43,262 nt of DNA from UHGV virus genome UHGV-1377064; one strand, written 5' to 3'. Below are positions 20,771 to 37,719 of the stretch, piece by piece. The notes below the pieces were generated by a model, which was given only the letters and a program-made list of their open reading frames with translations, was not told the origin of the DNA and made no database searches. The position numbers and the translations under genes were made by a program. Source of the stretch: a virus. Each line of letters opens with the position of its first letter. Positions within the stretch are counted from its first letter, which is position 1.

Positions 20771-20771
20771 A

Positions 20772-21305: not shown

Positions 21306-22685
21306 GTGATGAATTATGAACGTAGCTATTTACGTTCGTGTCAGGTCAGTACATTAGAACAAAAAGAACATGGCTATTCTATTGAAGAACAAGAAAGGAA
21401 GCTCAAATCATTTTGTGAGATAAACGATTGGAGTGTATCAGATGTATTTATTGACGCTGGTTTCTCTGGCGCTAAGCGTGACAGACCGGAATTACAACGT
21501 ATGATGAATGATATTAAACGGTTTGATTTAGTTTTAGTGTATAAGTTAGACAGGCTTACACGTAATGTGCGTGATCTACTTGATTTATTAGAGGTATTCG
21601 AACAGAATAACGTAGCATTCAGAAGTGCTACTGAAGTTTATGATACATCTACAGCTATGGGTAGACTGTTTGTTACGTTAGTTGGTGCTATGGCAGAGTG
21701 GGAAAGAGAAACCATTAGAGAGCGTGTTATGATGGGTAAACGCGCAGCGATTAAACAAGGTATGATACTCACACCACCACCCTTTTATTATGATCGTGTA
21801 GATAACACTTACATTCCTAATGATTATAAAAAAGTAGTTTTATGGGCATACGACGAAGTGATGAAAGGTAATAGTTCAAAAGCTATAGCTAGAAAATTAA
21901 ACGATTCAGATATACCACCTCCTAATGGCAAAAGGTGGGAAGATAGAACAATAACGAGAGCGCTAAGAAACCCTATAACAAGAGGTCATTATACTTGGGG
22001 AGATGTATTTATAGAAAACTCTCACGAGCCTATTATTACCGAAGAAATGTATCAACAAATAAAAGAAAGGCTAGAAGAACGAATCAATACTAAAATAGTC
22101 AGTCACGTATCAGTGTTCAGAGGTAAATTTATTTGTCCGAGATGTGGTGGCACATTAACAATGAATACAGTGACAAGAAAGAGAAAGAAAGGTTATGTTA
22201 CCTATAAAACGTATTATTGCAACACATGTAAAGCTAAAAAGGAGAGTTTCGGTTTTTCAGAGAATGAAGCATTGAGAGTGTTTCGTGACTACCTATCTGA
22301 ATTAGATTTAGACAAATACAAAGTAAAGACAAAACAAAACGATGATGTTGTTACTATTGATATAGATAAAATTATGGAACAACGTAAAAGGTATCATAAA
22401 TTATATGCTAAAGGGTTAATGCAAGAAGAAGAATTATTTGAATTGATTAAAGAAACAGACGAAACAATCGCAGAATATGAAAAACAAAAAGAATTAGTAC
22501 CCAGAAAAATACTAGATATAGATAAGATAAAAAGTTTTAAAAATGTATTGTTGGAATCATGGAATATATTCTCGTTAGAAGATAAAGCCGACTTTATTAA
22601 AATGGCTATTAAATCTATAGACATAGAGTATGTAGAGCTTAAGAATAGGCATTCCATTGAAATAAAAGAGATAGAATTTTATTAA
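21306..22685 (+). CDS. int: large serine recombinase (integrase). The N-terminus is frameshifted by a 5-bp duplication.
   Basis: 'STLEQKEHGYSIEEQ' resolvase catalytic region. Recombinase domain present. C-terminal zinc ribbon 'CPRCGG...CNTCK'. Confidence 0.7.
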   Translation: MMNYERSYLRSCQVSTLEQKEHGYSIEEQERKLKSFCEINDWSVSDVFIDAGFSGAKRDRPELQRMMNDIKRFDLVLVYKLDRLTRNVRDLLDLLEVFEQNNVAFRSATEVYDTSTAMGRLFVTLVGAMAEWERETIRERVMMGKRAAIKQGMILTPPPFYYDRVDNTYIPNDYKKVVLWAYDEVMKGNSSKAIARKLNDSDIPPPNGKRWEDRTITRALRNPITRGHYTWGDVFIENSHEPIITEEMYQQIKERLEERINTKIVSHVSVFRGKFICPRCGGTLTMNTVTRKRKKGYVTYKTYYCNTCKAKKESFGFSENEALRVFRDYLSELDLDKYKVKTKQNDDVVTIDIDKIMEQRKRYHKLYAKGLMQEEELFELIKETDETIAEYEKQKELVPRKILDIDKIKSFKNVLLESWNIFSLEDKADFIKMAIKSIDIEYVELKNRHSIEIKEIEFY

Positions 22686-22691
22686 CATATG

Positions 22692-22745
22692 TACGGAAGT
22701 ATAGACACTTGATTAATATTTAATGTGTATACTTCCGTATTTTTG
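22692..22745 (+). terminator. rho-independent terminator downstream of int
   Basis: Perfect 12-bp stem TACGGAAGTATA / TATACTTCCGTA with a 24-nt loop, followed by TTTTTG. Confidence 0.5.
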
Positions 22746-22805
22746 TTTATAGAACCCGTTGAATTCGACGGGTTTTGATTATCCGTGTCGAAATCGAGGC
22801 GTTTG

Positions 22806-22839
22806 AAATAAAAAACCACCACACTCAAAAGAATGTGGT
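22806..22839 (-). terminator. putative minus-strand terminator
   Basis: Stem accaca / tgtggt with a 10-nt loop, preceded on the plus strand by AAATAAAAAA. Confidence 0.35.
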
Positions 22840-23040
22840 AGCAAAAATTATAAAGGAGTAAAAAAGATTAAATTGTATGTAATTTAATTGTAGCATAGAT
22901 CGTGTAACCAATGTAGTGTTAAACTATGTTTTTTTAATATCAATCTAACATCTACATATTATAGACATAATTATAATTTATAAGAGGGTAGCCATAGCGA
23001 CTACCCTTGTATAATGACGTGGTGATTTAATTATATCACA

Positions 23041-23967
23041 CTAAGATTTTTCGATGTAATCACTATAATACGCCCACCGATATTTTTCACCTGTATTAGG
23101 ATTACGCCCTGCATATTTCCTTTTCCCTCTGCAAACCATGACAATGTTATTTTCTTGTTTTAAATCAACTTCATCTATAGCTTCTTTAATACTTCCGAAA
23201 ATTTTATTATCGTTTAATCTAACAACTTTTCTAGTATTGTTTTTAGCTCCACCCCTCGGATTATATTCACCTAATTTTTTAAGAATAGACACTATTTTCT
23301 TTCTATATAATCCTGTTTCCCTGCTAATTTCCAAAAAAGATATTCCTTTTTTGTGTTGATCAATTAAGTACTTAACATCAACATTTAATATACGCGTCAT
23401 TACGGCGTTTTTTAAACTGTTTTTGTCGTAAACATTTAATATATCACTTAATTTTGAGTTTTTTATTTCTTTTAAAATATAATCCATATCAGATTTACTG
23501 CAGTTTATAGCTACATAGTCCATTTCATTCTTTAAGCAATATTCTTCTTTAATTTTGTCTGAAAACAACATTCTATCGTTATACCACTTAGAGTTTTTTC
23601 TAACATCATAATGCTGTTCGCCATGCATTTCTATACATATATTTTCTTTTGGTAAATAAAAATCAAAAGGCAACACATCTTTATAAACGCAATTGTCAAA
23701 TCTCATTTGTGAAATATAAAAGATGTTGTTATCCTTTAATAATTGTTCCATTAACCTTTCTGAATAAGATCTGTTATCAGCACACACTTTACATTTAAAA
23801 CCTCTTCTTTTGATTTCTCCAGGGCTTTTTACTAGTTGTGTTTTACAATTAGGGCATACCCACAATATTTTTTGGGTGCTAGAACTACCTAGTTTTTTAG
23901 CGTGTTCTTTATCTTTAACAAATCTTCTGAGATAATCATTTTCATAAACCGTTTCTTTTATTGGCAT
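23041..23967 (-). CDS. moron: Zn-ribbon, PD-(D/E)XK (DUF559/Vsr-like) nuclease-like domain, HTH and NUMOD-like C-terminal DNA-binding region; homing-endonuclease-like
   Basis: 'CPNCK...CKVC' zinc ribbon. 'FDFYLPKENICIEMHGEQHYD' nuclease-like segment. 'GISFLEISRETG' HTH. C-terminal 'IFGSIKEAIDEV...VCRGKRKYAG...YRWAY' resembles a NUMOD-type DNA-binding tail. Confidence 0.4.
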   Translation of the reverse strand: MPIKETVYENDYLRRFVKDKEHAKKLGSSSTQKILWVCPNCKTQLVKSPGEIKRRGFKCKVCADNRSYSERLMEQLLKDNNIFYISQMRFDNCVYKDVLPFDFYLPKENICIEMHGEQHYDVRKNSKWYNDRMLFSDKIKEEYCLKNEMDYVAINCSKSDMDYILKEIKNSKLSDILNVYDKNSLKNAVMTRILNVDVKYLIDQHKKGISFLEISRETGLYRKKIVSILKKLGEYNPRGGAKNNTRKVVRLNDNKIFGSIKEAIDEVDLKQENNIVMVCRGKRKYAGRNPNTGEKYRWAYYSDYIEKS

Positions 23968-23995
23968 AATTCCACCTCGTTAATTAATACACCTT

Positions 23996-24004
23996 ATTAT
24001 ACCA
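23996..24004 (-). promoter_or_regulatory. extended -10 promoter (TGgTATAAT) for the moron
   Basis: Lies 29 nt upstream of the ATG. RBS gaggtgg is in the leader. Confidence 0.35.
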
Positions 24005-24013
24005 TTTTTTATG

Positions 24014-24036
24014 TAAAAAAAGCGGGTTTCCCCGCT
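24014..24036 (-). terminator. rho-independent terminator after the endolysin gene
   Basis: Stem agcggg / cccgct with loop tttc, followed on the minus strand by TTTTTTT. Confidence 0.6.
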
Positions 24037-24044
24037 TGATATAG

Positions 24045-25427
24045 TTATTTCCACTTTATCTTTCCATATAATTTCTTCTCTTTTTTTATCCGTTCTTGTT
24101 TGTCAGTAATTTCACCCAAAGCGCAATAAAAATAACCAGAACTAGGATTAGTCGGGTATTTAAATTTACCCCACCATAATTTTTTCTTAGTGTCTTTGTA
24201 TAATTGAACAATATCTACCCAATCGTCTTTTCCGTACAACCAAGAACCTTTTTCTACAATTTCGCCGTTGGGTTTTTTTCTAACTTTAATTGTTGTGTTC
24301 GGATAAAATCTACCTTTCCAATCCCATGTTTTTTTTACACTTTTAACTTTACCTGCACTTGTACCTCCAATTGGCTTGCCGTTAATAGCGCTTGCTATTG
24401 ACTTTGTGAAAGGTTTTATATTTTCATTAATATACTTCATATCTTTATATGAAGTAATGAACCCCAATTCAACAAGTCTATAGTCTATACCAATATCATT
24501 AGCAACATTACAGTTTAATAAGTCGTTACGTTGAGTTATCCCTCTTATAGTACCAACACTTTGTTTTAGTGCTGCTTGGATGTTTTTATCCGTTATATTA
24601 GCAGGATAACCGGCTGGAATGATTGTATGTCCACCTGTAGCTTTAGGACCTGCACTATCTAAATGAAATTCAATAACAGTATCATATCCTTGAGATTTTA
24701 CCCAATATAAGCCATAATCTCTGTGATTACCGACTCTTACTCCATAGGCTGTATCCTGATACATATCTTGCTTTTTTCCATATATACCAACAGTATGTCC
24801 TGCATCTTTCAAATATTTTGATACATTATCAACAATGTTTTTTCTTATAAAATCACGTTCGTTATAACCATTACCAATAGCACCAGGATCATTATACCCA
24901 TGACCAGCAACGATCATCACTTTTCTTTTTTTAACTTTTTTTACAGGTTTAGGTTTAGTTGTTTTTGCTTTAATTTTACTTACTTTTGTTTCTTTAGAAT
25001 ACAGAGGTTCTACAAAATACATATCAGGGTGATATTCGTGGTATATTGTTTGAGCAACCTCTGGCGGATTATTTCTTGCCCCGCCATACCAATTTTGATC
25101 CAAACTATAGAAATAATTTTGAGTAGCACTTTCTATAATAGCAACATGACCACATCCGTTACCATATTCGTAAGGAAAAACAACTAAAGTACCTTTTTTA
25201 GGAATATAAGAGTTATAATTTTTTACAACATTCGCGTATCCGTTAAAATCATTAACAAAAGGTATATCTTTAGCGTACATACCACTTAAAGTATGACCTG
25301 TTACGTAGTACCAATATTGATTGGCTAAATCAAAACATTGTGCGCCATAAACACCGTCGAAATCCCACCAATAACCTTTTAACCTGTCTAAATAAGCATG
25401 CGCTTGATTTCTAGTTTTATTTGTCAT
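24045..25427 (-). CDS. endolysin: CHAP peptidase, amidase_3-type N-acetylmuramoyl-L-alanine amidase and SH3b cell-wall-binding domain
   Basis: CHAP 'GAQCFDLANQYWYY...GHVAIIE'. Amidase 'MIVAGHGYNDPGAIG'. SH3b-like C-terminus 'WKGRFYPNTTIKVRKKPNGEIV'. Confidence 0.85.
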   Translation of the reverse strand: MTNKTRNQAHAYLDRLKGYWWDFDGVYGAQCFDLANQYWYYVTGHTLSGMYAKDIPFVNDFNGYANVVKNYNSYIPKKGTLVVFPYEYGNGCGHVAIIESATQNYFYSLDQNWYGGARNNPPEVAQTIYHEYHPDMYFVEPLYSKETKVSKIKAKTTKPKPVKKVKKRKVMIVAGHGYNDPGAIGNGYNERDFIRKNIVDNVSKYLKDAGHTVGIYGKKQDMYQDTAYGVRVGNHRDYGLYWVKSQGYDTVIEFHLDSAGPKATGGHTIIPAGYPANITDKNIQAALKQSVGTIRGITQRNDLLNCNVANDIGIDYRLVELGFITSYKDMKYINENIKPFTKSIASAINGKPIGGTSAGKVKSVKKTWDWKGRFYPNTTIKVRKKPNGEIVEKGSWLYGKDDWVDIVQLYKDTKKKLWWGKFKYPTNPSSGYFYCALGEITDKQERIKKEKKLYGKIKWK

Positions 25428-25699
25428 TAATCATTACCTCCAATTGGTGCTTTACCATTTGTGTTTTCTGTACCTGCTTTAACTTCATGCAATTTTTGTT
25501 GTCCTTTTTGTGCTGCGTGAGAGAAATTATTGTTTTTCCACCAAGTCCACAAAGAAATTGCACCAGTAATAATAGAACTGATAGTCACTTCGTCTACCGG
25601 AATAGGTGAAATATGTTTCGTAGCTAAAAATTGGTTAACCCAAGCTAAAATAAATACGATTGTTCTTACAATTGAACCTACATCTGTTTTCATACTCAT
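25427..25699 (-). CDS. holin
   Basis: 90 aa with two transmembrane segments and a charged C-terminus. Lies immediately upstream of the endolysin gene and overlaps it. Confidence 0.6.
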   Translation of the reverse strand: MSMKTDVGSIVRTIVFILAWVNQFLATKHISPIPVDEVTISSIITGAISLWTWWKNNNFSHAAQKGQQKLHEVKAGTENTNGKAPIGGND

Positions 25700-25748
25700 A
25701 TCTCCTTTTAGATAAATTAAAAAGCCAACGCATTGCGTTGACTCGATT

Positions 25749-26276
25749 TTATTTATTCTCTTTTATTAACTTTTTATCTTCGATAGAATGATCATTATAG
25801 ATATATTTAACCTCTATAGATCCTTCAGAAGTTTCATCTAATATGCCTAAAACATCAGGATTAGTCGTGATATTATCTATCTCTTGTAATTTAATAGGTT
25901 CGTCTAAACTATCGAATTTTACAATAGCGTTGACTTTGAACTGTTTAGGCAACTCTGTTTTAGTGCTGTAACAATAGTTTATAAAATCTTGTAAATTAAA
26001 GAGCTTTTTGTTTTCTAGATTAGATACATAACCATTAAACATCCATTCTAAGTTACTTTTTAAGATTTCATCGACTTCATTGCCGTCAGTAAATATAGCA
26101 ACTTGTATAGGCTCAACTACACCCTCTGTATATTGTAATAACCAATAGTCAATTGTTTTCTTATTAGATAACCAATCCTCTTTCATTATCTTAACTACTT
26201 CTTCGGCGATAGGTTTAGCCATTAGTTCAATCCATTGCCCTTTTTCTTTGTCGAAAATTTTAGGTATAGCTTTCAT
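25749..26276 (-). CDS. tail/baseplate-associated hypothetical protein
   Basis: By position in the tail-lysis module. Confidence 0.3.
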   Translation of the reverse strand: MKAIPKIFDKEKGQWIELMAKPIAEEVVKIMKEDWLSNKKTIDYWLLQYTEGVVEPIQVAIFTDGNEVDEILKSNLEWMFNGYVSNLENKKLFNLQDFINYCYSTKTELPKQFKVNAIVKFDSLDEPIKLQEIDNITTNPDVLGILDETSEGSIEVKYIYNDHSIEDKKLIKENK

Positions 26277-26785
26277 TATTCATTACCTCCAGTAGTATCA
26301 ATCCAAATTTTAGTTGTGTCATTAGGGGCGTTCTCTCCAATAACAAAATTTTCTTCGCTTTCAGTTTGATTCTTAATTAATCCGTTTTTTACACCGTATT
26401 CAATCATTTCTTGCCATAAATCATGATTTTGTGTATTGATCAATTGCCTACCAATCACACTCTCTGTTACTTGAATTTTCGCTTTATTGTCGGACGGGAA
26501 TACATACTTGTTATCCACCCATATTTCTAATGAATACGTGTTTGCAGGGATAATTTGATTGATTACAACATCACACACATAGGCATTGTCATATTGCCTA
26601 ACTGTAGTGTCGTAGATATATTTGACACCTGTACTGTCAGTGAGAAAAACTTTTGCAGGCAATCCTTCTAATTTTAAGTCTTCGTTGTTATTGTCAGACA
26701 AGATGTATCGCATGTGCGATAAGTCACCTTGTTTAATGCGATTGCCGTCTTGTGAGTCATTTAAATTAAGTACATTTATTAACAT
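26276..26785 (-). CDS. tail/baseplate-associated hypothetical protein
   Basis: By position in the tail-lysis module. Confidence 0.3.
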   Translation of the reverse strand: MLINVLNLNDSQDGNRIKQGDLSHMRYILSDNNNEDLKLEGLPAKVFLTDSTGVKYIYDTTVRQYDNAYVCDVVINQIIPANTYSLEIWVDNKYVFPSDNKAKIQVTESVIGRQLINTQNHDLWQEMIEYGVKNGLIKNQTESEENFVIGENAPNDTTKIWIDTTGGNE

Positions 26786-26838
26786 TAGAAACCACCCTTC
26801 AATTATTAAAGGCTACCCACCGTCAGTGAGTAGCCTTG

Positions 26839-28632
26839 TTATCTATATTTATCTCGAATGTAGTACATACCTTTTGTACCAACTGTTTTGTATAATTTAC
26901 TAATGGTTGATGCTTGGAAATTACACCATTCGATAGCAGTAGCATATTGCATACGACCTGGATTGCTAGGATTCCAACGCATTCTGTATAATGTGTTTTT
27001 ACCTTTGTTAAAGTATTGTTTCCTAACGAACTTAGCGCCACCTATAATACCATTACGTGGACTCGTCCACCCTTGACGTCTAGCGTATCCTATAGAAGCG
27101 TTAGGGTTGTTGTCGTAAGCTGCAATACCAAAGTAGTTGTAGATACCATAACGTCCACTAGCAAAGTTACTACGGCCATATCCACTCTCTAAGAAAGCGT
27201 GAGCGATTAAGTAAATTTCATTTACATTGTACTTCTTACAACCGTCTGCAAAAGCTTTACCTTGTCCAGATAAAGTGCCTTTACCTTTAAGTATCTTATT
27301 CAACTTACTTACTGATATACCTTGATATTTTCCTAAATCTAGCATTTGATAGCGTTGAGTTGAACTATTCCATATAGTGTTAGGATTCATATACTTACTT
27401 GTTTGTGACCTAGAAGCATTACCCCAACCCCAACTATAAGATTTTTGAGGCATGCCATGAGCCATTTGTGCATTAAGCGCTTGTTGGAAAGTATATTTAC
27501 TTTTCTCTACAACTACACGAGGTTTATTTGAAGTTCTGTTTGTCGTTTTACCTGTCGACTTATCGTTCTGTGAAGGATTGTCGACCGAAGTTTTAGGTTT
27601 AATTTTTATCTTTGTCTTTGTAGTTGTTGTAGTAATTGTTTCTGTAAGTAATTTATCTCTTTTCAAATATAAACCGATAATTTTCTTCTCGACTTCTTTA
27701 TATTTACTTTCATCAGGAATACCATTTTTGATTAAGTCGTAATTGATTAAATCTTTCATAGAACGCCATATGTTAGGATCTGCTTTGATTGACGATTCAG
27801 AAAGTTTCACCTTACTCCAACTTAGCAACCAAACGCCGTAGATTAACGCTCTGATTTGATTGAGCATGAATTGGCGTTTACTATCCGTTTGTCCTCCGCA
27901 AACTTCCATAACAAGCCAACCTGGATGTTCTGGTGCTTCTTCTGAATCAGGTCTAGGTGTCCATACACGCTCACGGTCAATATATACATGAGGGTATTCA
28001 TCTTCATTCACATATTTATTACGTTGTAAATACAATTCTTCAACAGAACGCATATGTGTACTCTCTTTGATATATATACCTTTTACCTTCCCTATCAACT
28101 TTTGCCCTTCAACCATATAATGATAAATATATTCCAAATCATCGTCTAAATCGTATGCGAATGATGTATAGGAAACTTTGGTAATCTCTTTAGTTATAGG
28201 TTTTGTTTGTTCTTTTGTGTTTTTAGAAGTGTTGTCATTAGAAGGTTTGGACGGTGTACTACTTGGTTTCGATGGTTTCTTAGTTTCTGCGTGGTAGGGA
28301 GGTCTGACAAATCCGCTTATACCGTTATAACTATGTTTAATTTTCGCGCCAGGTGAGCCTGTATAACTATTTGCACCAATCCAATTTTGATCCACACTAG
28401 TAAAGTAACTTTTGGTAGACGGACCTATGACAACAGCAGTATGACCAACACCGTTATTAAAGGAGCCCTTTCCCCAAACTGCCATGTCACCAGGTTTCGG
28501 AACAAAGTTTCTAGTGTTTCTATAAAATTTGAAGCCTTTAGGGTATCTATACCATGCCATAGCAATCGCATTTCCTGTTGTTTTAAAATGCCAATATCTA
28601 TTGAAAATGTAGTTTGGTAGATCCCAACACTG
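26839..28632 (-). CDS. tail-associated cell-wall hydrolase, exon 2: CHAP catalytic region (QCWDLPNYIFNRYW) through the GH73 glucosaminidase domain
   Basis: Frame stays open 72 nt upstream of the annotated Met and encodes the CHAP Cys motif. A glucosaminidase-like C-terminus is present. Confidence 0.6.
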   Translation of the reverse strand, partial: QCWDLPNYIFNRYWHFKTTGNAIAMAWYRYPKGFKFYRNTRNFVPKPGDMAVWGKGSFNNGVGHTAVVIGPSTKSYFTSVDQNWIGANSYTGSPGAKIKHSYNGISGFVRPPYHAETKKPSKPSSTPSKPSNDNTSKNTKEQTKPITKEITKVSYTSFAYDLDDDLEYIYHYMVEGQKLIGKVKGIYIKESTHMRSVEELYLQRNKYVNEDEYPHVYIDRERVWTPRPDSEEAPEHPGWLVMEVCGGQTDSKRQFMLNQIRALIYGVWLLSWSKVKLSESSIKADPNIWRSMKDLINYDLIKNGIPDESKYKEVEKKIIGLYLKRDKLLTETITTTTTKTKIKIKPKTSVDNPSQNDKSTGKTTNRTSNKPRVVVEKSKYTFQQALNAQMAHGMPQKSYSWGWGNASRSQTSKYMNPNTIWNSSTQRYQMLDLGKYQGISVSKLNKILKGKGTLSGQGKAFADGCKKYNVNEIYLIAHAFLESGYGRSNFASGRYGIYNYFGIAAYDNNPNASIGYARRQGWTSPRNGIIGGAKFVRKQYFNKGKNTLYRMRWNPSNPGRMQYATAIEWCNFQASTISKLYKTVGTKGMYYIRDKYR

Positions 28633-28745
28633 CGTTTGTATTTAACTTAACGCCTTTCCCCGCATTAATTTCTTAATACGCTTGTGTAACGTTAAATTGC
28701 TCTATAAAAAGAGCCTCATGCTTTCACATGAGACTAGACTATATC

Positions 28746-29384
28746 TTAATATTCATTTTTAGCTTTTTTATAAGCTAAGTGTGCTTCTTCTGCAGTTTCA
28801 TAAACACCTAAGTATATAAATTTCTTGTTTTTGTAAAGTTGCGCTTGATATTTGTTTAGATGTGGTTTGTAAGTTACTCCTGTATATCCTGTCTTATTAT
28901 GATATTTTCGTCGATTGTTTGAATTTTCTTCATGACTAACCCATCTGCAATTTGATGGTTTATAATCGTCATCGTTGTTAATTCTGTCTAATTCAGCACC
29001 TTCGAATGGTACATCCCCCATATCTTTGTAGAATTGCATAAAGTCATCTTTCCACTCATCACAAACCTTTATACCTCTACCGCCATATGCGCTGTAAAAA
29101 TCATAATTAGAGTTGTAACATCGTTGCTTCATACCTTTCCATTTATTATAAATTAAAGTTCCAGTCATACCGTGTTTTTTAGAATGACTAACTTTATTCA
29201 AACAACCACAACTTTTAGAATAACCATTTTTAACTTCGGTACCAATCATTATTTTTTCATTGCCGCATCTCGTACAGTAACATTTATATAGTTTCTTTTT
29301 ATGTTTATTTCTGCCATAAAACTCTAGAACTTTAAGATAATTAAACTGCATTCCTACAATGTCCATTTGACCACTCCTTATCAA
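28746..29384 (-). CDS. HNH homing endonuclease with a C-terminal AP2 DNA-binding domain (intron-encoded)
   Basis: HNH-like Cys/His cluster. 'YTGVTYKPHLNKYQAQLYKNKKFIYLGVYETAEEAHLAY' is an AP2 domain. The ATG at 29366 with RBS aaggag is the likelier start than the TTG at 29384. Confidence 0.6.
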   Translation of the reverse strand: MIRSGQMDIVGMQFNYLKVLEFYGRNKHKKKLYKCYCTRCGNEKIMIGTEVKNGYSKSCGCLNKVSHSKKHGMTGTLIYNKWKGMKQRCYNSNYDFYSAYGGRGIKVCDEWKDDFMQFYKDMGDVPFEGAELDRINNDDDYKPSNCRWVSHEENSNNRRKYHNKTGYTGVTYKPHLNKYQAQLYKNKKFIYLGVYETAEEAHLAYKKAKNEY

Positions 29385-29395
29385 TCGTCAAATAC

Positions 29396-29441
29396 ATTGT
29401 ATCACACATGAATATTTAATGCACTGCCTATCAATTGATAG
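29396..29441 (-). promoter_or_regulatory. extended -10 (TGaTACAAT) plus a perfect 14-bp palindrome CTATCAATTGATAG upstream of the homing endonuclease ORF
   Basis: Read directly. Palindrome at 29428-29441. Confidence 0.35.
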
Positions 29442-29615
29442 TACATAGTCGTTGAAGCTTCCTCTACTATTACCATAGAGGCTTGCCTGCTGATTGCCCA
29501 ATCCTTAATATTTTTTAACTTTCACGCTTACCGTTACCAGTTACGTTGTAGTTATTAAGGCTCTAAGGGTGTCCCAGCAATTCACATTATTTTTTTATAT
29601 GGAACCCATTAATTA

Positions 29616-29723
29616 AGCTCCATAATAACCATCTACATCAACTCTTCTGCCAATCATCCTTTTTGCCCATGCTGCAACTTCCGAAGCAGTAGGTTTTCTT
29701 CTTTTAGGACTAGGTAATCCCAT
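29616..29723 (-). CDS. tail-associated hydrolase, exon 1 (MGLPSPKRRKPTASEVAAWAKRMIGRRVDVDGYYGA)
   Basis: RBS gaggtgg 4 nt before the ATG. The N-terminus is typical of phi11-type tail hydrolases. It joins in frame to exon 2 to give ...YYGA|QCWDLPNY. Confidence 0.55.
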
Positions 29724-29744
29724 ATATCCACCTCATTTCTGGGA

Positions 29745-29775
29745 TAATAAAAAGCCGACTAAAAAGCCGGCTTTG
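29745..29775. terminator. bidirectional rho-independent terminator
   Basis: Stem aaagccg / cggcttt with a 10-nt loop, flanked by T-runs on both strands. Confidence 0.5.
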
Positions 29776-29783
29776 TTTCTCAA

Positions 29784-29846
29784 TTATTTACATTTACCAA
29801 ACCAGAAACATTCCCAAAAACTTGCACCTAAAAATAATCCGAACAT
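29784..29846 (-). CDS. 20-aa hydrophobic/aromatic micro-ORF (MFGLFLGASFWECFWFGKCK)
   Basis: Strong SD aaggagg 9 nt upstream of the ATG, overlapping the stop of the upstream gene. The terminator lies 9 nt downstream. Confidence 0.3.
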   Translation of the reverse strand: MFGLFLGASFWECFWFGKCK

Positions 29847-29861
29847 GGTAACTCACCTCCT

Positions 29862-30194
29862 TTAAACACCGAAAAACATTCTTAATACTGCTACGATTAA
29901 AGAACCAGCTATAGTGCCAACCAATCCTAAAACCCACATTTTAATGTCTTTGATGTTTTTTTGATTTTCTTTTTTGTTTTGAGATTCTAATTCTCTCTCT
30001 CTGTTGATAGAGTCCAAAGTGAAATTCATTTTTTGATTAATCAAATTTTGATTGTGTTGTCCGTCTTTTATCTGTTCCAAAGAGTTGAAGATTTTTTCGT
30101 CGTTATCTTCCAATCTTTTTATACGTCTTTCGTAATCCCCTCTTTGGCTACTTTCTGTCATATAAACACCTACTTCACTTAAAATAAAAACCAC
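29862..30194 (-). CDS. membrane protein with a C-terminal transmembrane helix (DUF2951-like position, pre-holin)
   Basis: Coiled-coil N-terminal region and C-terminal TM 'MWVLGLVGTIAGSLIVAVLRMFFGV'. Confidence 0.35.
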   Translation of the reverse strand: MVFILSEVGVYMTESSQRGDYERRIKRLEDNDEKIFNSLEQIKDGQHNQNLINQKMNFTLDSINRERELESQNKKENQKNIKDIKMWVLGLVGTIAGSLIVAVLRMFFGV

Positions 30195-30197
30195 AAG

Positions 30198-30338
30198 CTA
30201 TTTAACTTGTGGTTCGTAATCTTTACCTGTAGTTTCTTTAAATTGTTCCGGAGTAATCCAACCAACTCTAACAAACTTTTTGAAAGTTTCGTCAGTGTAT
30301 AATTTTTTCTTATATAAATCGATTACTACTTTATCCAT
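30198..30338 (-). CDS. XkdX-like small phage protein (46 aa)
   Basis: '...ITPEQFKETTGKDY' is XkdX-family like. Its start abuts the stop of the upstream gene. Not in the ORF track, being under 60 aa. Confidence 0.4.
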   Translation of the reverse strand: MDKVVIDLYKKKLYTDETFKKFVRVGWITPEQFKETTGKDYEPQVK

Positions 30339-30339
30339 A

Positions 30340-30699
30340 TTACGCTTCCCCCAATTTTTGATTTGCTTGTTCTTCAGTTATTAGTGCGATGTTCTGCTTC
30401 AAACTCATAACTTCTTCTTGTAAATCGACAACTAAGCTAGTTAATTTAGCTATAGCAATATCTTTGTCATCAACAGGAATTTCTACTTCAGGCAACATCT
30501 TTTCTAGCTCATCTTGGGTTTGTCCAACCCATTGTTTACCGTCATAATAGCAAGGTAAGATAATACCTTGAGGAGGTTGGTTCTCTGTCCATTTTTCATC
30601 AGGATAAACATATTCATCTTCTTCGTTTTTGTGAACAATAATTGCTTGTCCATTTTTCCATAAATAAACTACTTTCATTTCATCACTCCGTCCATTCAT
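30340..30699 (-). CDS. hypothetical tail-module protein
   Basis: By position. Confidence 0.3.
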   Translation of the reverse strand: MNGRSDEMKVVYLWKNGQAIIVHKNEEDEYVYPDEKWTENQPPQGIILPCYYDGKQWVGQTQDELEKMLPEVEIPVDDKDIAIAKLTSLVVDLQEEVMSLKQNIALITEEQANQKLGEA

Positions 30700-32215
30700 A
30701 TTGACCGTAAATATAATCTGTATCAGTCCACGCTGATGGATCTACAGTAGCGTCAAAATTCACTGTTCCTGATGTGTTCAACGAAATACGTCCGCTGTTT
30801 TTGTTTCTAGGTGCACTTATTGAGAAAAACATTAAGTTTTTGACGAATTCTTTAGGTAAAAGTGCAATAGTCTGTCCATGTTTGATAGTTGTAGCATTAA
30901 TGCGTAACATTTTCTTAGTAACTCCATTCTGTGTGATTGTTCTGTACGCACTAGTAAATCCACCTTTGGAAACTAAGTCGTTATGAGGCGACGCACTGTT
31001 CACTAGTTGTAAATCAATCCAACCAGTATCTACAACATCTGAACCAACACGTTCCCATTTGCTCCAACTCTTATAAAATCTTTTTTGGTAGATTACAGTT
31101 GAATTGTAAGGTTGGTATTGTATTAGAACAGCATCTCCATTTCTTTTGTACTTTGTTAACCACCCATTATTATTTGTTCCAGCTGGATTGTTCAAAGTAA
31201 GAACAACATATCTAGTTCCTATCGGTAAAGACATTAATTGTTCGTTATTGTCGAAATCTATTTGTAGGTTGGCATCATAAAAATTAGTACCATCATCATT
31301 TGTTAATTTAAATTTTTGCCAATCCTTTTCTGTAAACTTACTTTCTACATATTCAGGAGTAGTAAAGCCATCTCTTTCAAGGGTTTCATTAAATATTTGT
31401 AGCTTTTCATCAATTGTTGTGTTAGCTTGATTAACATTTGAATTAAAAGCGTCCACATTGCTATCATAAGTTTTTTGGAATGTATCTGAAGCTAAATCAT
31501 AATCCGTTTTGATAGCGTCACGTTTAGCATCAATTTGTCTTAAAGCTTCTTCTCTCTCTAGGTCAATGCTTTGGTTAGACGATATTAACGCGTCTGTAAT
31601 TGAAACAATAGCGTCTGCTTGAGCCTTGTTTATTTTAATGAGGTATTCTTCAGCTGTTTGCTTAATAGATTCAATCAACGTTTGTGTATCGCCTATATCT
31701 TGCTTAAGTTGTTGCACTTTCTTTTCTAATTCCGAACGCAATTCATCAAACATTCGAATATAAGATACTTTGATATCACTTTCGATTTGATTGATAAGAC
31801 TGTCGCGTACCGTGAATTTAAAAGTGCCTAACACAACAGTGTCGTCTTTTCCTACGTTGTTTACATCGTTGAGTGATAAGTAAATTTCACCCAACACTTC
31901 AGAATCGACAACGTTTTTCAGAAACCATTGAGGTACCGTAACACCTATTAATCCTTTCATTGGATCAATGAATTCTACGTCTAATACACCTGATGTACTA
32001 GGTCGTTTTTCTTCTGTTCCGTTCGCAGCTTTAAAGAAAGCATAACCTTTAACATTCTTATCGCTGATTAACAAAGGTTTGTTGTCTTTTTGTACTACAA
32101 ATTGAAATTTAGCAGTGTTTTTATCGAGATTATAAAAACCGATACCTCTATTAGATATCGGTTGTAAATATGGTTCTTCGTTTAAATCAAGTTTACCTAC
32201 TTTTTCTAATTCCAT
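30683..32215 (-). CDS. tail fiber / baseplate upper-type protein with coiled-coil
   Basis: 510 aa with a central coiled-coil and a C-terminal beta-rich region. Confidence 0.4.
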   Translation of the reverse strand: MELEKVGKLDLNEEPYLQPISNRGIGFYNLDKNTAKFQFVVQKDNKPLLISDKNVKGYAFFKAANGTEEKRPSTSGVLDVEFIDPMKGLIGVTVPQWFLKNVVDSEVLGEIYLSLNDVNNVGKDDTVVLGTFKFTVRDSLINQIESDIKVSYIRMFDELRSELEKKVQQLKQDIGDTQTLIESIKQTAEEYLIKINKAQADAIVSITDALISSNQSIDLEREEALRQIDAKRDAIKTDYDLASDTFQKTYDSNVDAFNSNVNQANTTIDEKLQIFNETLERDGFTTPEYVESKFTEKDWQKFKLTNDDGTNFYDANLQIDFDNNEQLMSLPIGTRYVVLTLNNPAGTNNNGWLTKYKRNGDAVLIQYQPYNSTVIYQKRFYKSWSKWERVGSDVVDTGWIDLQLVNSASPHNDLVSKGGFTSAYRTITQNGVTKKMLRINATTIKHGQTIALLPKEFVKNLMFFSISAPRNKNSGRISLNTSGTVNFDATVDPSAWTDTDYIYGQYEWTE

Positions 32216-34881
32216 TATTTAGCACCCCACAATACTAATGCTATTGCACATCCACGTTCTTCAGTGTATTCAGAAGTTATTTTCATGACACGACCTTTAC
32301 CATTCACATTATCTTTATATCCTACACCTGCTCTACCGTTGATATAGTCGCCTGGTATAACGTCTTTTTCAATGTTCGTGTAGATTTGACCTAATAATCC
32401 GACTACATTCCATTCAGGTCGTTCTGAACGTGATTGATAATCGATTTTGTCGTTATATTCAGGGTTTTCTACTGGTATGTCACGCCATTCGAAAGAAACA
32501 TTTCCTTCATCGTCTACAAATTCAACTTGTTTTCTGTTTGTAATCGTTACTCCATACTCATTTTTTAAAAATCTATCTTTATGGTGGAATGTTTTTTCAT
32601 TTGCTACCAATGCAGCAGTTCCAGATATAACGCCAATTGGTGTGTCATTAGGTTGCGCTTTTCTTATCTTATCGCCGTCTAATGTAACGATAGTTCCTAA
32701 ATCGATTGCTAATCCATTTTGTGACTCAAATAACTCTGCGATATCGGCACTATCTTGTTTAAGTTGACCGGCTAAAGTTAAGTTTCCTGAATAAGTGCTT
32801 AAATCAAATTTAATGTTAGATGTAGAAGCATTACCACTAGAACCATATCCAGCGACAACATGATAGTTACCAGGTGACTTAACACGATTACTATTAAGAA
32901 TTAATTGTGTGTGTCCTGACTTGTCTGTTTCTGAATTTAACGAGTTGATAATACCACTACGTGATCCATAAGATTTGGAGTTAGCACCAGAACCTAATAC
33001 AAAGCTACGATTACTGTATGCTTTCGAACCACCTGTTGACGCAATAACTGCACTAGCATTAGCTACGCCTGCACTTCCTGTAGACGCTATACTAGCACCA
33101 CCTTTTCCAACTGTAGGAGGTGTGTCGTATTTTTCGCCGGCTATCCATGCAGGTGTTGAATAATTGTTTGCTGTGATACCACTAATCATAGCGTGGTTAT
33201 TTGTCAAACGTAATCCTATGCCCGAACCATTACCGTGTAAGTTACAATTAGTTATTTTAGTATCGTATATTTTACTTCCAACACCGATACCGATATTGTT
33301 AGATGAATTCCAAATATTGATATTGTTTAAAATAACTCTTGAAGGTCTATTATCTCCGCCAAATAATCTAATATCTACTTCTGCATTTTTAAAGTTACGC
33401 ACATTAATATTATTAAGCGAGATGTTTTCGGACATGAATTGGATGGCTATTGCTGGTTGTTTTTTATCTAGTTTTCCACCTTCTAATTTTCCGAAATCAT
33501 CATCACCAATTGCAGTGAAATTATTGACTGATACATTTTTATAAGCACTGATTAATAATGCTCTAGGTGTTGAGCCTGGATACACACCATTGTATTTAGG
33601 GTTTAAAGCTAAGCAATTATTTAGCACCACGTCATAAGCAGTCAAACTTTTATTGTCCGTTTTAGCTCTATGATGACCGATGTGTCGAATGTTGTAAGCT
33701 CTTGTATCTTCGATTGATACGTGACCGTTAACGAACACACCACTTGCAGCACTTGCATTACTGTGTGCTTTGATTTCTAAACCACCGAAGTTACCTTTGG
33801 TTCTGTTGTTTGATAAGAACACATATTGTGAGCCATCGTCAATTTCTACACCGTTGTTATTACTTCCACCTGTTGGTGTATGTGCATAACAATTAGAAAT
33901 TGTAATGTAACGAGAGTGATGGGTAGTGATACCATCATCTCCGCAACCATATACCTCACAATTATCAATATGAATATGCTTACTTTCTAATGCGTAAGGC
34001 ACTCTGTTTCCATCGCCTTCGTAGTAATAATTGTCATTTGCATATGTTACATCGATACAGTGTAGTAAAGCGTCATATGATTTAACGTTATAGATATATC
34101 CATTAGTTACACCCGCAAATCTAATGTTAGATGAACGAGAACCACCGGTAGCTTTAAGTGTTTTATTTTGTCTAAACTTATTCCCGTTGAACGAAAAACT
34201 TTCTAATGAAATGTTTTCAGCTCCACCACTCATTTTTAAGTTAGTGATACCAATATTTTCTGCAGGTGTTTCGTCCATAAACTTAATTGTAGTAATGTCT
34301 TTACCTTGTCCTACCAAACGAGAGTTGTTAGGCATTTTAATACCTGTTGTAAGGTAAGTACCACCACTCATAGTTACCTGTACATTGCCGTTACCTAATG
34401 CGTCTTGGAAAGCTTTCGTACTGTCCTTTTGACCTGTAGGATCTCCGCCAAAGTCATCAACGTTAACAATACGTTGTATTTTCTTAGTTAAGTCGGCTCT
34501 TAGTTCTTCTCTAGCGTTACTTTCTCTTAAAAAGTCGTGATATAGACGTTGGTGTAAAGAATCGAAACTTTGAGCGTCCATTGATGTGTGACTAGCTTTT
34601 AATTCGTTATTGCCATCACCGTTATGACCTAACACAAGATGTTCAATAAGTTCATCTTGATAATTTTCATGATTAGATAATACGACATCTTTACCTTTTG
34701 TAGTTTTGTGTTTGATTTGATCAGTTGTATGCGCATTTTTTTGAGTGGTTAAATGCTCGTTAAAGCTATCATCACTTTTATTAGTCCAGTATTTTATTTG
34801 TTCGAAGTTATTCTCAAGTTGACTTACAAACTTTTGACTAAAGTACGAGTGAAGTTTCGTAATTAAGTTATCTAATTTCAA
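32215..34881 (-). CDS. tail fiber / receptor-binding protein with a right-handed beta-helix (pectate-lyase-like) region
   Basis: Repetitive 'NxxxxG' beta-helix-like coils. Gly/Ser-rich linkers. 888 aa. Confidence 0.45.
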   Translation of the reverse strand: MKLDNLITKLHSYFSQKFVSQLENNFEQIKYWTNKSDDSFNEHLTTQKNAHTTDQIKHKTTKGKDVVLSNHENYQDELIEHLVLGHNGDGNNELKASHTSMDAQSFDSLHQRLYHDFLRESNAREELRADLTKKIQRIVNVDDFGGDPTGQKDSTKAFQDALGNGNVQVTMSGGTYLTTGIKMPNNSRLVGQGKDITTIKFMDETPAENIGITNLKMSGGAENISLESFSFNGNKFRQNKTLKATGGSRSSNIRFAGVTNGYIYNVKSYDALLHCIDVTYANDNYYYEGDGNRVPYALESKHIHIDNCEVYGCGDDGITTHHSRYITISNCYAHTPTGGSNNNGVEIDDGSQYVFLSNNRTKGNFGGLEIKAHSNASAASGVFVNGHVSIEDTRAYNIRHIGHHRAKTDNKSLTAYDVVLNNCLALNPKYNGVYPGSTPRALLISAYKNVSVNNFTAIGDDDFGKLEGGKLDKKQPAIAIQFMSENISLNNINVRNFKNAEVDIRLFGGDNRPSRVILNNINIWNSSNNIGIGVGSKIYDTKITNCNLHGNGSGIGLRLTNNHAMISGITANNYSTPAWIAGEKYDTPPTVGKGGASIASTGSAGVANASAVIASTGGSKAYSNRSFVLGSGANSKSYGSRSGIINSLNSETDKSGHTQLILNSNRVKSPGNYHVVAGYGSSGNASTSNIKFDLSTYSGNLTLAGQLKQDSADIAELFESQNGLAIDLGTIVTLDGDKIRKAQPNDTPIGVISGTAALVANEKTFHHKDRFLKNEYGVTITNRKQVEFVDDEGNVSFEWRDIPVENPEYNDKIDYQSRSERPEWNVVGLLGQIYTNIEKDVIPGDYINGRAGVGYKDNVNGKGRVMKITSEYTEERGCAIALVLWGAK

Positions 34882-34895
34882 ATTTTTTGACCTCC

Positions 34896-36752
34896 TTAGC
34901 CATAAAAACCATAAAAGTTTTTAATCAATTCGTACATAATGACCTCGTGCCCTTTTTCATTAGGGTGTACCCCGTCAGGCATACTCGATTTTCTGTACGA
35001 AGGTATATTGGGTTTGAATTGTGTTGAATGATAAGCGTCATAAACAGGTATATCCAGTTCGTTACAAGCGTCTATTTGAACATCTACATAATCAGCTAAA
35101 GTGTGACCTAAATCGTTCTTAGTAGTGTCTTTTCTTACGGTTTTGCCGTCTTTTATATAACATTGTTTAGTAGGTGTCATAACAATTATTTTAGAGTTAG
35201 GGTTATTACTCTTGATTTTAGTGATAGCACTATAAAAGGCACCGTAAAACGTTTTAGTATCCGTTTTATCAGTGCCTATATTAATATCATTAGTCCAATC
35301 ATCATCTGTACCTTGCACAATGATTAAATCAGATTTAATTTTGGTCGCTTGTTCATAAATGCTATTATCTTTGTTTGTGCTCATTGTCGCACCACTAACA
35401 GCTAAGTTTGTTGATTTAGCCTTTATCTTCTTAGCTAACATTTGAGTAAAGTTAGTTTTAGCACCAGTACCTTTAGCGACAGAATCTCCAATAGTACCTA
35501 TTGTTTTAACTTTCCTAATCTTAGACTTAGGTGTAAAGTCGTGAACAATAGTACCGTTTGCAGTTGTAACACTCTTAGCATGCGCGCTTTCTAATCTTCT
35601 TTTTATTTCATCGGTTTTCTTCTGCAAATCTTGTGCAGTCTTAGTATTTGCGTTGTTTTGAGCTTGAATCATCCTTAAGTCTTTAGCTGGATCAGATTTG
35701 TTAGACTTAATAGCTTTAACATAATTTGCAGCAGTGTTTACTGCTTTCATGTATCTATCTTGTAATCTAAATTCCCCTAAGACTACGTCTTGCTTGATAA
35801 TCTTATTGTTAATATCTCGATGTGTAGTGATTTCTATAATTCTTACATATTCATTTAATCCTATTAGGTCGTCAATGACATTAACTATATCTCCGACTTT
35901 AGGAATTGCTTCTTTAAAATGTTTTTGTAAAGAAATGAAATCTAGTGTTACAGACGTTTTTAAACTTTCTTGTATAACTAACTCCATAGCTTTTTTGAGT
36001 GTATCACCTTTAGTTATGCGTCCATCTACAACGGGTGGCGCATGCCGTTTGCCTATTAAGTCGGCTAAAGGGTGTGTGTACTCATATTGCAAACTAGCTT
36101 CGTTAAAAGTTTGTTGCTCATCAAAGCCACCATAACCTCTGATATAGGTGTAACACTTAGAAGCATCTTCTTGGACTTTTACATTATTCGCATTAACACC
36201 TGCTTTAATGTAGTAGTTAGCCTTTCTTTGAACAATATCATATAAATGGAACGTCTTTGTTTTAGCGTTGTATTCATATTCTAGGTTATATCTTTCCAAA
36301 CCTTTTTTGAATAGTTCTAAGTTTGTATCATGATTACCTAGATTCTCAAATTTAGATGATGAAACCTTAGCGTGTAATTCATACTTATAACCGGTATTTC
36401 TAAAAACGAGATCAAAATAATTTTTACCAGTAAAACTACCGTTATATACTTCGTAGACTCGCAAGTTATTTAAATCATCTAATTCGACAGGACGCGCTTT
36501 GATTGTTAACTTTTCCTTTTGACCTACAGTTGTTTTGTCTAACATAACGATACGGTATTCGTTTAGGTCATCAGCACCACCAACACCTGTAATCGTCCAC
36601 ATTTTAGTAATAGCCCCTATAGCGTCAAATGTAGCTTTGTTTTCTACCATTTCTATTTCTAAGGAGCCATCTTCATTTAATTTCTCGTTTAATTTTGTTT
36701 CTACAGGTAGGGATTGCCCAATGCCCTGTAACGTTTTTAATAATATTGGCAA
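34896..36752 (-). CDS. tail-tip protein (Tal-like) with a C-terminal SGNH/GDSL hydrolase domain
   Basis: 'GTIGDSVAKG' GDS block and 'DGVHPNEKGH' DxxH block of SGNH hydrolases in the C-terminal 200 aa. Confidence 0.5.
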   Translation of the reverse strand: MPILLKTLQGIGQSLPVETKLNEKLNEDGSLEIEMVENKATFDAIGAITKMWTITGVGGADDLNEYRIVMLDKTTVGQKEKLTIKARPVELDDLNNLRVYEVYNGSFTGKNYFDLVFRNTGYKYELHAKVSSSKFENLGNHDTNLELFKKGLERYNLEYEYNAKTKTFHLYDIVQRKANYYIKAGVNANNVKVQEDASKCYTYIRGYGGFDEQQTFNEASLQYEYTHPLADLIGKRHAPPVVDGRITKGDTLKKAMELVIQESLKTSVTLDFISLQKHFKEAIPKVGDIVNVIDDLIGLNEYVRIIEITTHRDINNKIIKQDVVLGEFRLQDRYMKAVNTAANYVKAIKSNKSDPAKDLRMIQAQNNANTKTAQDLQKKTDEIKRRLESAHAKSVTTANGTIVHDFTPKSKIRKVKTIGTIGDSVAKGTGAKTNFTQMLAKKIKAKSTNLAVSGATMSTNKDNSIYEQATKIKSDLIIVQGTDDDWTNDINIGTDKTDTKTFYGAFYSAITKIKSNNPNSKIIVMTPTKQCYIKDGKTVRKDTTKNDLGHTLADYVDVQIDACNELDIPVYDAYHSTQFKPNIPSYRKSSMPDGVHPNEKGHEVIMYELIKNFYGFYG

Positions 36753-36765
36753 TTAAGCAACCTCC

Positions 36766-37704
36766 TTACAAGTAATATCTTTTATGTTTAAACGTAATTT
36801 TTTGAAGTTTCTTAGTAGTATGGAAGGTATTCCAACCAGGCATTAATACAGGTTGTTGTTTTGTCTTGTTGTAATCATCAATGCGTAAGTTATTACGATA
36901 TACATGAATGCCGTCAAATTTGATAACATCACCGGCTCTCAATTCTAATCCACTTATTTTCATAATGTCACTATGTGTCATATAGAAGTTAAAACCATCG
37001 CTATCATTTTTACTGACATTTTCTCCAAGTGTCATTTCTACAACACTATCTTGGTTAAATTGGTTAATTTCAGCTGTACCACCGTAATATACATCGCCCA
37101 CTTTAGTGTCATAGAATGTGTATCTACGTTCTTTATGAGATGTGTTGAACGGGTTTTTGTCTGGAATACCCCATTTATTCAAATTACCACTCTCTTTTTC
37201 TAAATCTGTACTATACCCAATACTCTCAAAGTATGGTAATTCAATCGTTTCGAAATCTAGTGTGAATTCACCTGACGTTTTAGTAGTATCGAATGACACT
37301 TCATTAACTAAGCCAACAAGTATCTGCCTACCGTCTACATATTCAAGTTCAAACTTTTGTTCTTTAGGTTGAAAGATATTTTCGAACAATATCTCGTTTT
37401 CTGGAGAAGCTAATTCTCTTAAATAGAATTCCCCCCTAAGCATAGCTTGTATATCTGATTTTAGATGAGAAGCATAAGCTATCTTTTCTACATCGTACCT
37501 AACCGTCATAGATATACTTTTCTTTTCTTCTTTAGTAGCATTATGAAATCTACCGTTAACACGATCAATTTCATCAAACTTTCGGTCATAGCCTGCACCT
37601 TTAACATCGTAAGAAACAACTCTCAACGCAGTACCAGTAAAGCGATTGTTACTAATACGCAAACGTTCTTTATTTTTGTATACCTCAACATCATGTAATA
37701 TCAA
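36766..37704 (-). CDS. distal tail protein (Dit-like)
   Basis: 312 aa immediately after the tape measure gene. Confidence 0.45.
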   Translation of the reverse strand: MILHDVEVYKNKERLRISNNRFTGTALRVVSYDVKGAGYDRKFDEIDRVNGRFHNATKEEKKSISMTVRYDVEKIAYASHLKSDIQAMLRGEFYLRELASPENEILFENIFQPKEQKFELEYVDGRQILVGLVNEVSFDTTKTSGEFTLDFETIELPYFESIGYSTDLEKESGNLNKWGIPDKNPFNTSHKERRYTFYDTKVGDVYYGGTAEINQFNQDSVVEMTLGENVSKNDSDGFNFYMTHSDIMKISGLELRAGDVIKFDGIHVYRNNLRIDDYNKTKQQPVLMPGWNTFHTTKKLQKITFKHKRYYL

Positions 37705-37719
37705 TTAACAATCACTCCT

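Follow-up and report, generated by a model that had tools for sequence, protein, structure and literature searches.

A tail peptidoglycan hydrolase gene probably interrupted by a mobile group I intron in a temperate Staphylococcus epidermidis phage

In the virus genome UHGV-1377064, of which we analysed the whole 43,262-nucleotide (nt) stretch (hereafter the window), the coding sequence for the tail-associated peptidoglycan hydrolase is found in two pieces on the minus strand, namely a 36-codon open reading frame (ORF) at 29613..29723, preceded by a strong ribosome-binding site (RBS), and a large ORF at 26839..28560. This raises the question of whether the two pieces are unrelated genes, the remains of a broken gene, or two exons that are joined in the mRNA. 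The comparison with related phages points to the last of these: with a probability of roughly 0.92, the locus is the tail peptidoglycan hydrolase gene of a temperate S. epidermidis siphovirus of the Rockefellervirus type, interrupted by a mobile group I intron.

One hydrolase gene in two exons

The 36-codon ORF encodes MGLPSPKRRKPTASEV...DGYYGA (complete translation, MGLPSPKRRKPTASEVAAWAKRMIGRRVDVDGYYGA) and is then closed by TAA. The frame of the large ORF remains open upstream of its Met at 28560, and from 28632 it reads QCWDLPNYIFNRYWHF, beginning with CAG UGU, which encodes Gln-Cys, including the catalytic cysteine of the CHAP domain. Joining 29616 to 28632 (...GGA GCU followed by CAG UGU...) keeps the frame and gives a protein of 633 amino acids, with the intron site directly after the GCU codon for Ala and ahead of the two CHAP active-site codons for Gln and Cys. 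When translated from Met 28560, the large ORF matches only positions 35-81 of the Pfam CHAP profile, with 23.9 bits (below the cut-off of 26); the joined protein matches positions 4-81 with 36.3 bits, as well as the Glucosaminidase profile with 45.9 bits. The parts of the locus are as follows:

29616..29723, minus strand: first exon (36 codons, MGLPS...DGYYGA) of the gene for the tail-associated cell-wall hydrolase, with an N-terminus as in the uninterrupted gp22 of phage phiIPLA7
28633..29615, minus strand: group I intron of 983 nt, which starts with UAAUUAAU, ends in ...ACAAACG and is precisely absent from about 25 related records
26839..28632, minus strand: exon 2, with the rest of the CHAP domain and the glucosaminidase domain, stop codon included

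In phiIPLA7 the counterpart is a single coding sequence of 1902 nt, annotated as 'tail associated cell-wall hydrolase', which runs across the insertion point without interruption (GGTTATTATGGCGCC directly followed by CAGTGTTGGGATTTACC). The joined exons of the window have the same length, 1902 nt, and differ from phiIPLA7 gp22 at 17 nucleotides and in one amino acid (S/P, residue 172). A megablast search of phage records with 26800..29800 as query returned about 25 records of Rockefellervirus-type S. epidermidis phages, including phiIPLA7, IME1348_01, CNPH82, CNPx and PH15, which align in two pieces, skip one third of the query and lack exactly the 983 nt. The fact that so many records are without precisely these nucleotides indicates that the insertion is not due to chance. 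The whole stretch, insert included, is present in two records, vB_SepS_BE28 (97.2%) and PG-2021_93 (94.0%).

A preliminary description of this DNA, made from its letters alone, had proposed the split gene, its exact junction and the 633-amino-acid product. The in-frame join and the uninterrupted homologs bear this out: the joined exons align with the ~25 related records as one continuous gene, and the intact homologs carry both exons in that one gene, so that the two ORFs are not unrelated genes. The tryptic peptide VDVDGYYGAQCWDLPNYIFNR spans the exon junction and is possible only from spliced mRNA. In the GenBank record of BE28 the pieces are annotated as separate genes. A 37-codon ORF at 29388..29501 (minus strand) of the window corresponds to BE28_0051, a 'hypothetical protein'; it lies wholly inside the P4-P7.1 part of the ribozyme described below, and is almost certainly not a gene.

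The insert as a group I ribozyme

The ends of the insert follow the splice-site rules of group I introns, since the 5' exon finishes in U and the intron in G (28633), and the intron opens with an in-frame stop directly past the 5' splice site. The P1 helix with a U-G wobble that the preliminary description had drawn is confirmed and proves to be longer: intron nt 10-15 (GGUUCC) pair with exon GGAGCU, with the U-G at the junction, and there are eight contiguous pairs in all, for which the final 8 nt of exon 1, AUGGAGCU, supply the 5' strand.

At the gathering threshold, Rfam returned nothing for the whole window. With E-value reporting, model RF00028 (Intron_gpI) matches 29625..29371 with 39.4 bits (E 3e-8, gathering cut-off 50), and a second fragment, 28749..28717 with 21.3 bits, corresponds to the P7'/P9 end of the model. 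The window copy stays below the cut-off because a 651-nt ORF-bearing segment in the P8 loop splits the model. The ORF-less 349-nt ortholog of the Staphylococcus aureus phage DW2, which sits at the same codon boundary, reaches 80.1 bits over the whole of Intron_gpI (cut-off 50). The covariance-model search thus supports the intron type first proposed, sub-threshold in the window and well above threshold in DW2. The elements of the ribozyme were assigned as follows:

29599..29607, minus strand: internal guide sequence GGGUUCCAU (intron nt 9-17), the partner of the exon 1 end in P1, whose U-G pair lies at the splice site
29408..29589, minus strand: 5' half of the catalytic core, defined by RNAalifold helices, pair counts and P3 pairing
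29583..29589, minus strand: P3 5' strand (5' half of the core)
29574..29579 with 29488..29493, minus strand: P4, followed by P5 and its P5a extension
29456..29487, minus strand: P6/P6a (5' half of the core)
29446..29450, minus strand: P7 5' strand, GACUA; the P7 strands flank the ORF
29426..29444, minus strand: P7.1 hairpin, which includes a 14-nt palindrome
29417..29423, minus strand: P3 3' strand (5' half of the core)
29408..29416, minus strand: P8 5' strand (5' half of the core)
28748..28756, minus strand: P8 3' strand AUGAAUAUU, overlapping the 3' end of the endonuclease gene (final codons and stop), with J8/7 (AAGAUA) next
28737..28741, minus strand: P7 3' strand, UAGUC, after J8/7
28715..28733, minus strand: P9 hairpin with a GAAA loop, in the 3' peripheral domain (28644..28733)
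28699..28715, minus strand: P9.1 hairpin (3' peripheral domain)
28688..28698 with 28644..28654, minus strand: P9.2, with an inner GAAA-loop hairpin at 28662..28681

Covariation was assessed in seven introns with trimmed P8 loops, from the window, DW2, the Streptococcus pyogenes prophage Javan496, OPT-SC01, PMBT8, Lacachita and PT94. MAFFT misregistered P1 and P3 in some rows, and both helices were scored from fixed anchors (the 7 nt before a conserved GAAUUG, the 7 nt after a conserved CAG, and the last 8 exon nt). On this set RNAalifold recovers P4, P5, P6, P6a, P7, P7.1, P8, P9, P9.1 and P9.2, with compensatory changes in 47 of 77 pairs, the 3' peripheral helices (P9, P9.1 and P9.2) among them. 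Over 73 core pairs, 95.5% of the cells are paired, as against 36-44% when the partners are slid by 1-3 columns, and 43 of these pairs have changed on both sides; in 500 shuffles, no observed measure was reached even once. P3, which is non-nested within the P3/P7 pseudoknot, pairs in 7/7 introns with four different sequence solutions, and in all seven the P1 helix has its U-G at the splice site and the last intron nucleotide is G.

The P7 strands GACUA and UAGUC and the GAAA hairpin that had been pointed out beforehand were located in this fold, at 29446..29450, 28737..28741 and 28715..28733, respectively. The 14-bp palindrome reported with them, CTATCAATTGATAG, is also present (14 nt, 29428..29441), but not as a separate DNA site: it is the P7.1 hairpin, the pairing of which is kept by compensatory changes, as two pairs have changed on both sides between DW2 (CUACAAAUUUGUAG) and the window (CUAUCAAUUGAUAG). 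Given P7.1 and the similarity of its core to the Twort nrdE-I2 intron, the window intron presumably belongs to the phage IA-type introns.

A pattern search for the junction in IMG/VR returned 25 contigs; the intron was measurable in 23, and two further junction matches were not measured. The forms are:

983 nt with a 206-amino-acid ORF, in S. epidermidis-type genes: 14 contigs
982 nt with a 206-amino-acid ORF, in S. aureus-type genes (RINIDNYRGA before and QCWDTPNF after the junction): 5 contigs
349 nt, ORF-less: 4 contigs
981 nt, with the longest ORF cut to 167 amino acids: 1 contig
992 nt with a 209-amino-acid ORF: 1 contig

This size series is the one expected from gain, decay and loss of a homing endonuclease gene inside a stable ribozyme, and the 981-nt copy with the 167-amino-acid ORF is a decaying endonuclease gene. 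The two variant copies, IMGVR_UViG_2588253785_000001 and IMGVR_UViG_3300011563_000001, are the 981-nt form with the 167-amino-acid ORF and the 992-nt form with the 209-amino-acid ORF. Guide and exon change in step across the 25 IMG/VR copies: exon CGUGGUGCU occurs with guide GGUUCCACG in S. aureus-type genes, and exon (U/C)AUGGAGCU with guide GGUUCCAUG or GGUUCCAUA in S. epidermidis-type genes. The same junction pattern had no exact match in the GTDB species representative genomes, and the rest of the window contained no further copy of either the endonuclease gene or the intron core.

Taken at the level of sequence comparison, the P1 helix and terminal G, the Rfam matches and the covariation across seven introns identify the insert as a group I intron. 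An intein, a group II intron and a simple free-standing endonuclease insertion were considered and rejected, since the insert starts with a stop, contains a group I core and is exactly absent in relatives.

Mobility, the encoded protein and competing explanations

The window appears to be a complete temperate phage genome, with 66 ORFs of at least 90 amino acids, an integrase-sized ORF at 21306..22685 (plus strand) and no transfer RNA genes. Its late region, 25001..43262, matches phiIPLA7 at 99.9%, intron aside. Compared base by base, the two sequences show 19 differences in 17,279 aligned nt, which are all confined to the surroundings of the insertion site:

27825..29743, minus strand: candidate co-conversion tract with all 19 differences, reaching 127 nt upstream and 808 nt downstream of the intron position

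The remaining ~15.3 kb of flanking sequence have zero differences to phiIPLA7. The window shares its base with BE28, which contains the intron, at 16 of these 19 sites, and its divergence from BE28 climbs steeply just past the downstream end of the tract. Four differences that lie at most 15 nt from the junction are synonymous (GAC>GAT, GGC>GGA, GCC>GCT and TTA>CTA), and one of these junction-proximal changes gives exon 1 its required terminal U. This clustering at the site, together with the BE28 alleles, suggests a co-conversion footprint, and the simplest reading is that a phiIPLA7-like genome gained the intron with a short flanking exon sequence from a BE28-like donor, in a recent homing event with co-conversion. 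On a larger scale, the window genome is also a mosaic of known S. epidermidis phages, with 1..25000 closest to PG-2021_89 and PG-2021_90 (~96%), late genes nearly identical to phiIPLA7, and no end-to-end match in any record.

The P8 loop contains the gene that would account for this mobility:

29396..29404, minus strand: candidate promoter of the endonuclease gene, an extended -10-like motif (TGATACAAT) located in the P8 loop by reading the sequence
29371..29379, minus strand: RBS AAGGAGTGG of the endonuclease gene, ending 4 nt before the ATG at 29366
28746..29366, minus strand: gene of a putative homing endonuclease, 206 amino acids plus stop, with an N-terminal Cys4 motif, an atypical nuclease-like domain and a C-terminal AP2 domain

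The gene starts with the ATG at 29366 and stops at 28746..28748, and its final codons and stop double as the P8 3' strand. As to the proposal that it has its own extended -10 promoter, the motif TGATACAAT is indeed found at 29396..29404 and relatives have TTGACA/TATAAT-like hexamers at the equivalent place of the P8 loop, but a two-hexamer promoter scan made no call at this position, with a count of promoter-like sites equal to the shuffle expectation. An internal promoter is thus plausible from these motifs. The ORF-less intron of OPT-SC01 (minus strand) has TTGACA, a 17-nt spacer and TATAAT (TGATATAAT) in its P8 loop, and the P8 loop of PMBT8 contains promoter-like hexamers too; in such ORF-less introns the hexamers are probably remnants of the promoter of a lost endonuclease gene.

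The protein had been described as an HNH-AP2 endonuclease, of which the AP2 part is solid (residues 159-206, 34.1 bits against a Pfam cut-off of 33.3) and the HNH part is not. Pfam HNH models gave no match at E up to 10, either in the window protein or in four homologs, and NCBIfam gave none for the ORF. Sequence searches of the PDB, with the single protein or with a 5-member profile, returned AP2 domains only, as did Foldseek against the PDB, and the profile comparison with I-TwoI produced just a 16-residue motif match. The 'HNH' label comes from PHROG family names only (phrog_374, E 1.4e-82). The second His of the canonical HNH motif is the catalytic general base. When I-TwoI, PIPHHKNNIKDDNRLENLEWVTVSEN (HHKNN), is aligned with the window protein, AELDRINNDDDYKPSNCRWVSHEEN, this second His is replaced by Arg128, within the nuclease-like domain motif ELDRINN...Y...NCRW...EN. 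In an alignment of 48 homologs this Arg is invariant, together with C31, C34, C53, C55, R82, W105, F112, Y135 and N139, and D127 and N151 are nearly so. The AlphaFold model (mean predicted local distance difference test score, pLDDT, of 92) has two strands (125-128 and 140-143) followed by a helix (145-150), forming a beta-beta-alpha unit in which R128 ends the first strand and Y135 lies in the connecting loop.

A His-less enzyme of this fold is known in PacI, where a loop tyrosine takes the place of the histidine (PMC5714182, PMC3384342). The fold similarity between PacI and the window protein is weak (15% identity, modest Z) and the match is missed by Foldseek; moreover, PacI is a homodimeric restriction enzyme and has no AP2 domain. 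We therefore regard the protein as a putative homing endonuclease of an atypical type, possibly a PacI-like His-Me finger, whose activity is predicted. The family is very large: over 5000 relatives are found at E <= 1e-10, most of which bear the name 'AP2 domain-containing protein', and the family matches 87-144 Vibrio phage records. A more speculative suggestion, which we hold to be rather doubtful, is that the family as a whole consists of homing endonucleases whose nuclease domain is a PacI-like beta-beta-alpha-metal unit lacking the His, with Y135, R128 and D127 in its place. No homing endonuclease with such chemistry was found characterised in the literature searched, and the chemistry of the nuclease domain is the only element here that might be new in kind, on the basis of a modest structural match.

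The window protein also fits the published architecture of the IPA-HNH class, in which an AP2 domain is combined with an HNH-like domain too divergent for Pfam HNH_3 (Barth et al. 2023, PMC10448857): it has a C-terminal AP2 domain and an N-terminal divergent nuclease, and is encoded in or beside a conserved phage gene. The emphasis of that study is different, being on free-standing genes near polymerase, reductase and terminase genes rather than on tail hydrolases of staphylococcal phages.

In the mechanism that we propose, the transcribed intron RNA would fold into the P3-P9 core, with the guide paired to the end of exon 1; an external guanosine would attack the U-G splice site, the terminal G would dock, and ligation of the exons would yield the mRNA for the 633-amino-acid enzyme. 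On unspliced RNA, translation would end at the UAA formed by the first three bases of the intron, and an N-truncated enzyme without the catalytic Cys could be made by internal initiation only. The 206-amino-acid gene in the P8 loop, which has an RBS of its own and probably also a promoter, would provide a protein with an AP2 DNA-binding domain and an atypical nuclease-like domain. This protein would cut or nick the intronless allele of a co-infecting or resident related phage and, with the intron-bearing copy as template for the repair, the intron would be passed on along with the exon sequence beside it. An intron endonuclease of a jumbo phage was shown to damage co-infecting phages (PMC11620839) and, by analogy, the present enzyme may also damage co-infecting intronless Rockefellervirus phages.

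Four points weigh against a mobile, self-splicing intron. Splicing is deduced from sequence; the window intron itself is under the Rfam gathering score (39.4 vs 50); the protein combines the lack of a Pfam HNH match with an Arg for the canonical His, which makes the predicted nuclease activity less assured; and the tract could reflect intron loss from phiIPLA7, although loss needs two events on an identical backbone.

The third point leads to an explanation in which the ribozyme splices but the ORF product is no active homing endonuclease, being instead a DNA-binding remnant, a splicing helper or a regulator, with the intron spread by ordinary recombination. The lack of HNH matches in the protein and its four homologs, the Arg in 48/48 sequences, the AP2-only Foldseek result and the existence of ORF-less and truncated-ORF copies are all in line with this, which we nevertheless consider unlikely. 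We judge it similarly improbable that an intron present in the ancestor of phiIPLA7 was lost when this phage recombined with an intronless allele, the window being the ancestral state. The tract data are symmetrical in principle, and phiIPLA7, IME1348_01 and vB_SepS_27 score equally against the window in this region, so that an intronless donor allele is common; however, a BE28-like tract on a backbone identical to phiIPLA7 is an import in any case, and loss would be a second event while 15.3 kb gained no substitution. Finally, a non-splicing insertion that broke the gene, leaving a 36-amino-acid fragment and a truncated hydrolase from the internal Met 28560 without the CHAP cysteine, agrees with the separate ORFs of the BE28 annotation and was weighed by the authors of the DW2 study, who cited work showing the phi11 tail hydrolase to be dispensable for replication, its absence significantly reducing the structural viability of the particles (PMC4124061), but it is very improbable, because a complete group I core kept by compensatory changes, a guide that co-varies with the exon, and an in-frame junction kept in more than 25 genomes, two host species and both ORF-containing and ORF-less forms are constraints that would not apply to a dead insertion.

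Related introns and the hydrolase gene in its context

The closest precedent for a mobile intron at this site is the 349-bp insert of DW2, which Keary et al. (2014) described as a putative group I intron from its size, its in-frame stop and a weak similarity to the Twort and phage 812 introns; splicing was not tested and no structure model was given, and no intron had previously been reported in a staphylococcal tail hydrolase gene (PMC4124061). By our measurement the DW2 insert is also 349 nt long, and it lies in the same gene family and at the same codon boundary (...GA followed by QCWD...). Its ribozyme is 93.6% identical to that of the window in the 3' part and in the 90-95% band in the 5' part. 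In contrast to DW2, the window has a 206-amino-acid ORF in P8 (983 nt in total), belongs to an S. epidermidis phage and has a guide adapted to another exon. The window intron is therefore the endonuclease-bearing version of the intron suspected in DW2, now in S. epidermidis phages and unannotated before; we found no paper on an intron in Rockefellervirus phages. Phages with the intron are viable, since BE28 was isolated and DW2 was propagated to high titre (PMC4124061). To a specialist the finding is unsurprising, as the mobile element is of a well-known kind; what the sequence comparison adds is unusually clear support for the ribozyme and for a recent transfer.

Homologous ribozyme cores are found in Lacachita, PT94, PMBT8, OPT-SC01 (lysK-type) and Javan496, but there the host gene is an endolysin and not a virion tail hydrolase. 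Introns in staphylococcal endolysin genes are well documented, in 20/205 phages (PMC6507118). Lacachita, PT94 and the S. pyogenes prophage Javan496 have homologous AP2-type ORFs in P8, with 48-52% identity, whereas PMBT8 and OPT-SC01 are ORF-less; in the record of Lacachita, the features 'Group I catalytic intron' and 'AP2 domain-containing protein' are already annotated. Relative to the CHAP Gln-Cys codons, the insertion lies 0 nt upstream in Javan496 (as in the window, before CAG UGU), 5 nt in Lacachita and 11 nt in OPT-SC01, while the PMBT8 intron is instead in the amidase-annotated part of the lysin gene. Related introns thus seem to have landed repeatedly at the CHAP active-site codons, in endolysins as well as in tail hydrolases. 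The nrdE-I2 intron of Twort, with I-TwoI (AF485080), is a more distant relative: its 5' ribozyme core is 86.5% identical over 96 nt and it also carries an endonuclease ORF, but its host gene encodes ribonucleotide reductase, and I-TwoI has the canonical HH...N...N, no AP2 domain and only the short motif match to the window protein.

With an identical 17-kb backbone and an imported tract that is legible base by base, the window and phiIPLA7 are a natural intron-plus/minus pair of unusual clarity, through which the homing of introns among temperate staphylococcal phages can be tested directly. For annotation, the hydrolase of the window phage, of BE28, of PG-2021_93 and of at least 23 IMG/VR contigs would be one 633-amino-acid enzyme. 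Its mis-annotation as a 36-amino-acid ORF, a 'hypothetical protein' and a truncated hydrolase matters when virion hydrolases are cloned as antimicrobials, and the DW2 group did obtain a poorly active enzyme from the truncated ORF. The hydrolase gene has the same place as in phiIPLA7, in the tail module and upstream of the holin and endolysin genes. Between the preceding ORF (29862..30194) and the exon 1 RBS, a terminator-like hairpin, AAAGCCGGCTTTTTAGTCGGCTTT, followed by Ts, is present at 29751..29774 (minus strand), and in view of this hairpin the hydrolase gene may start a separate or attenuated transcript.

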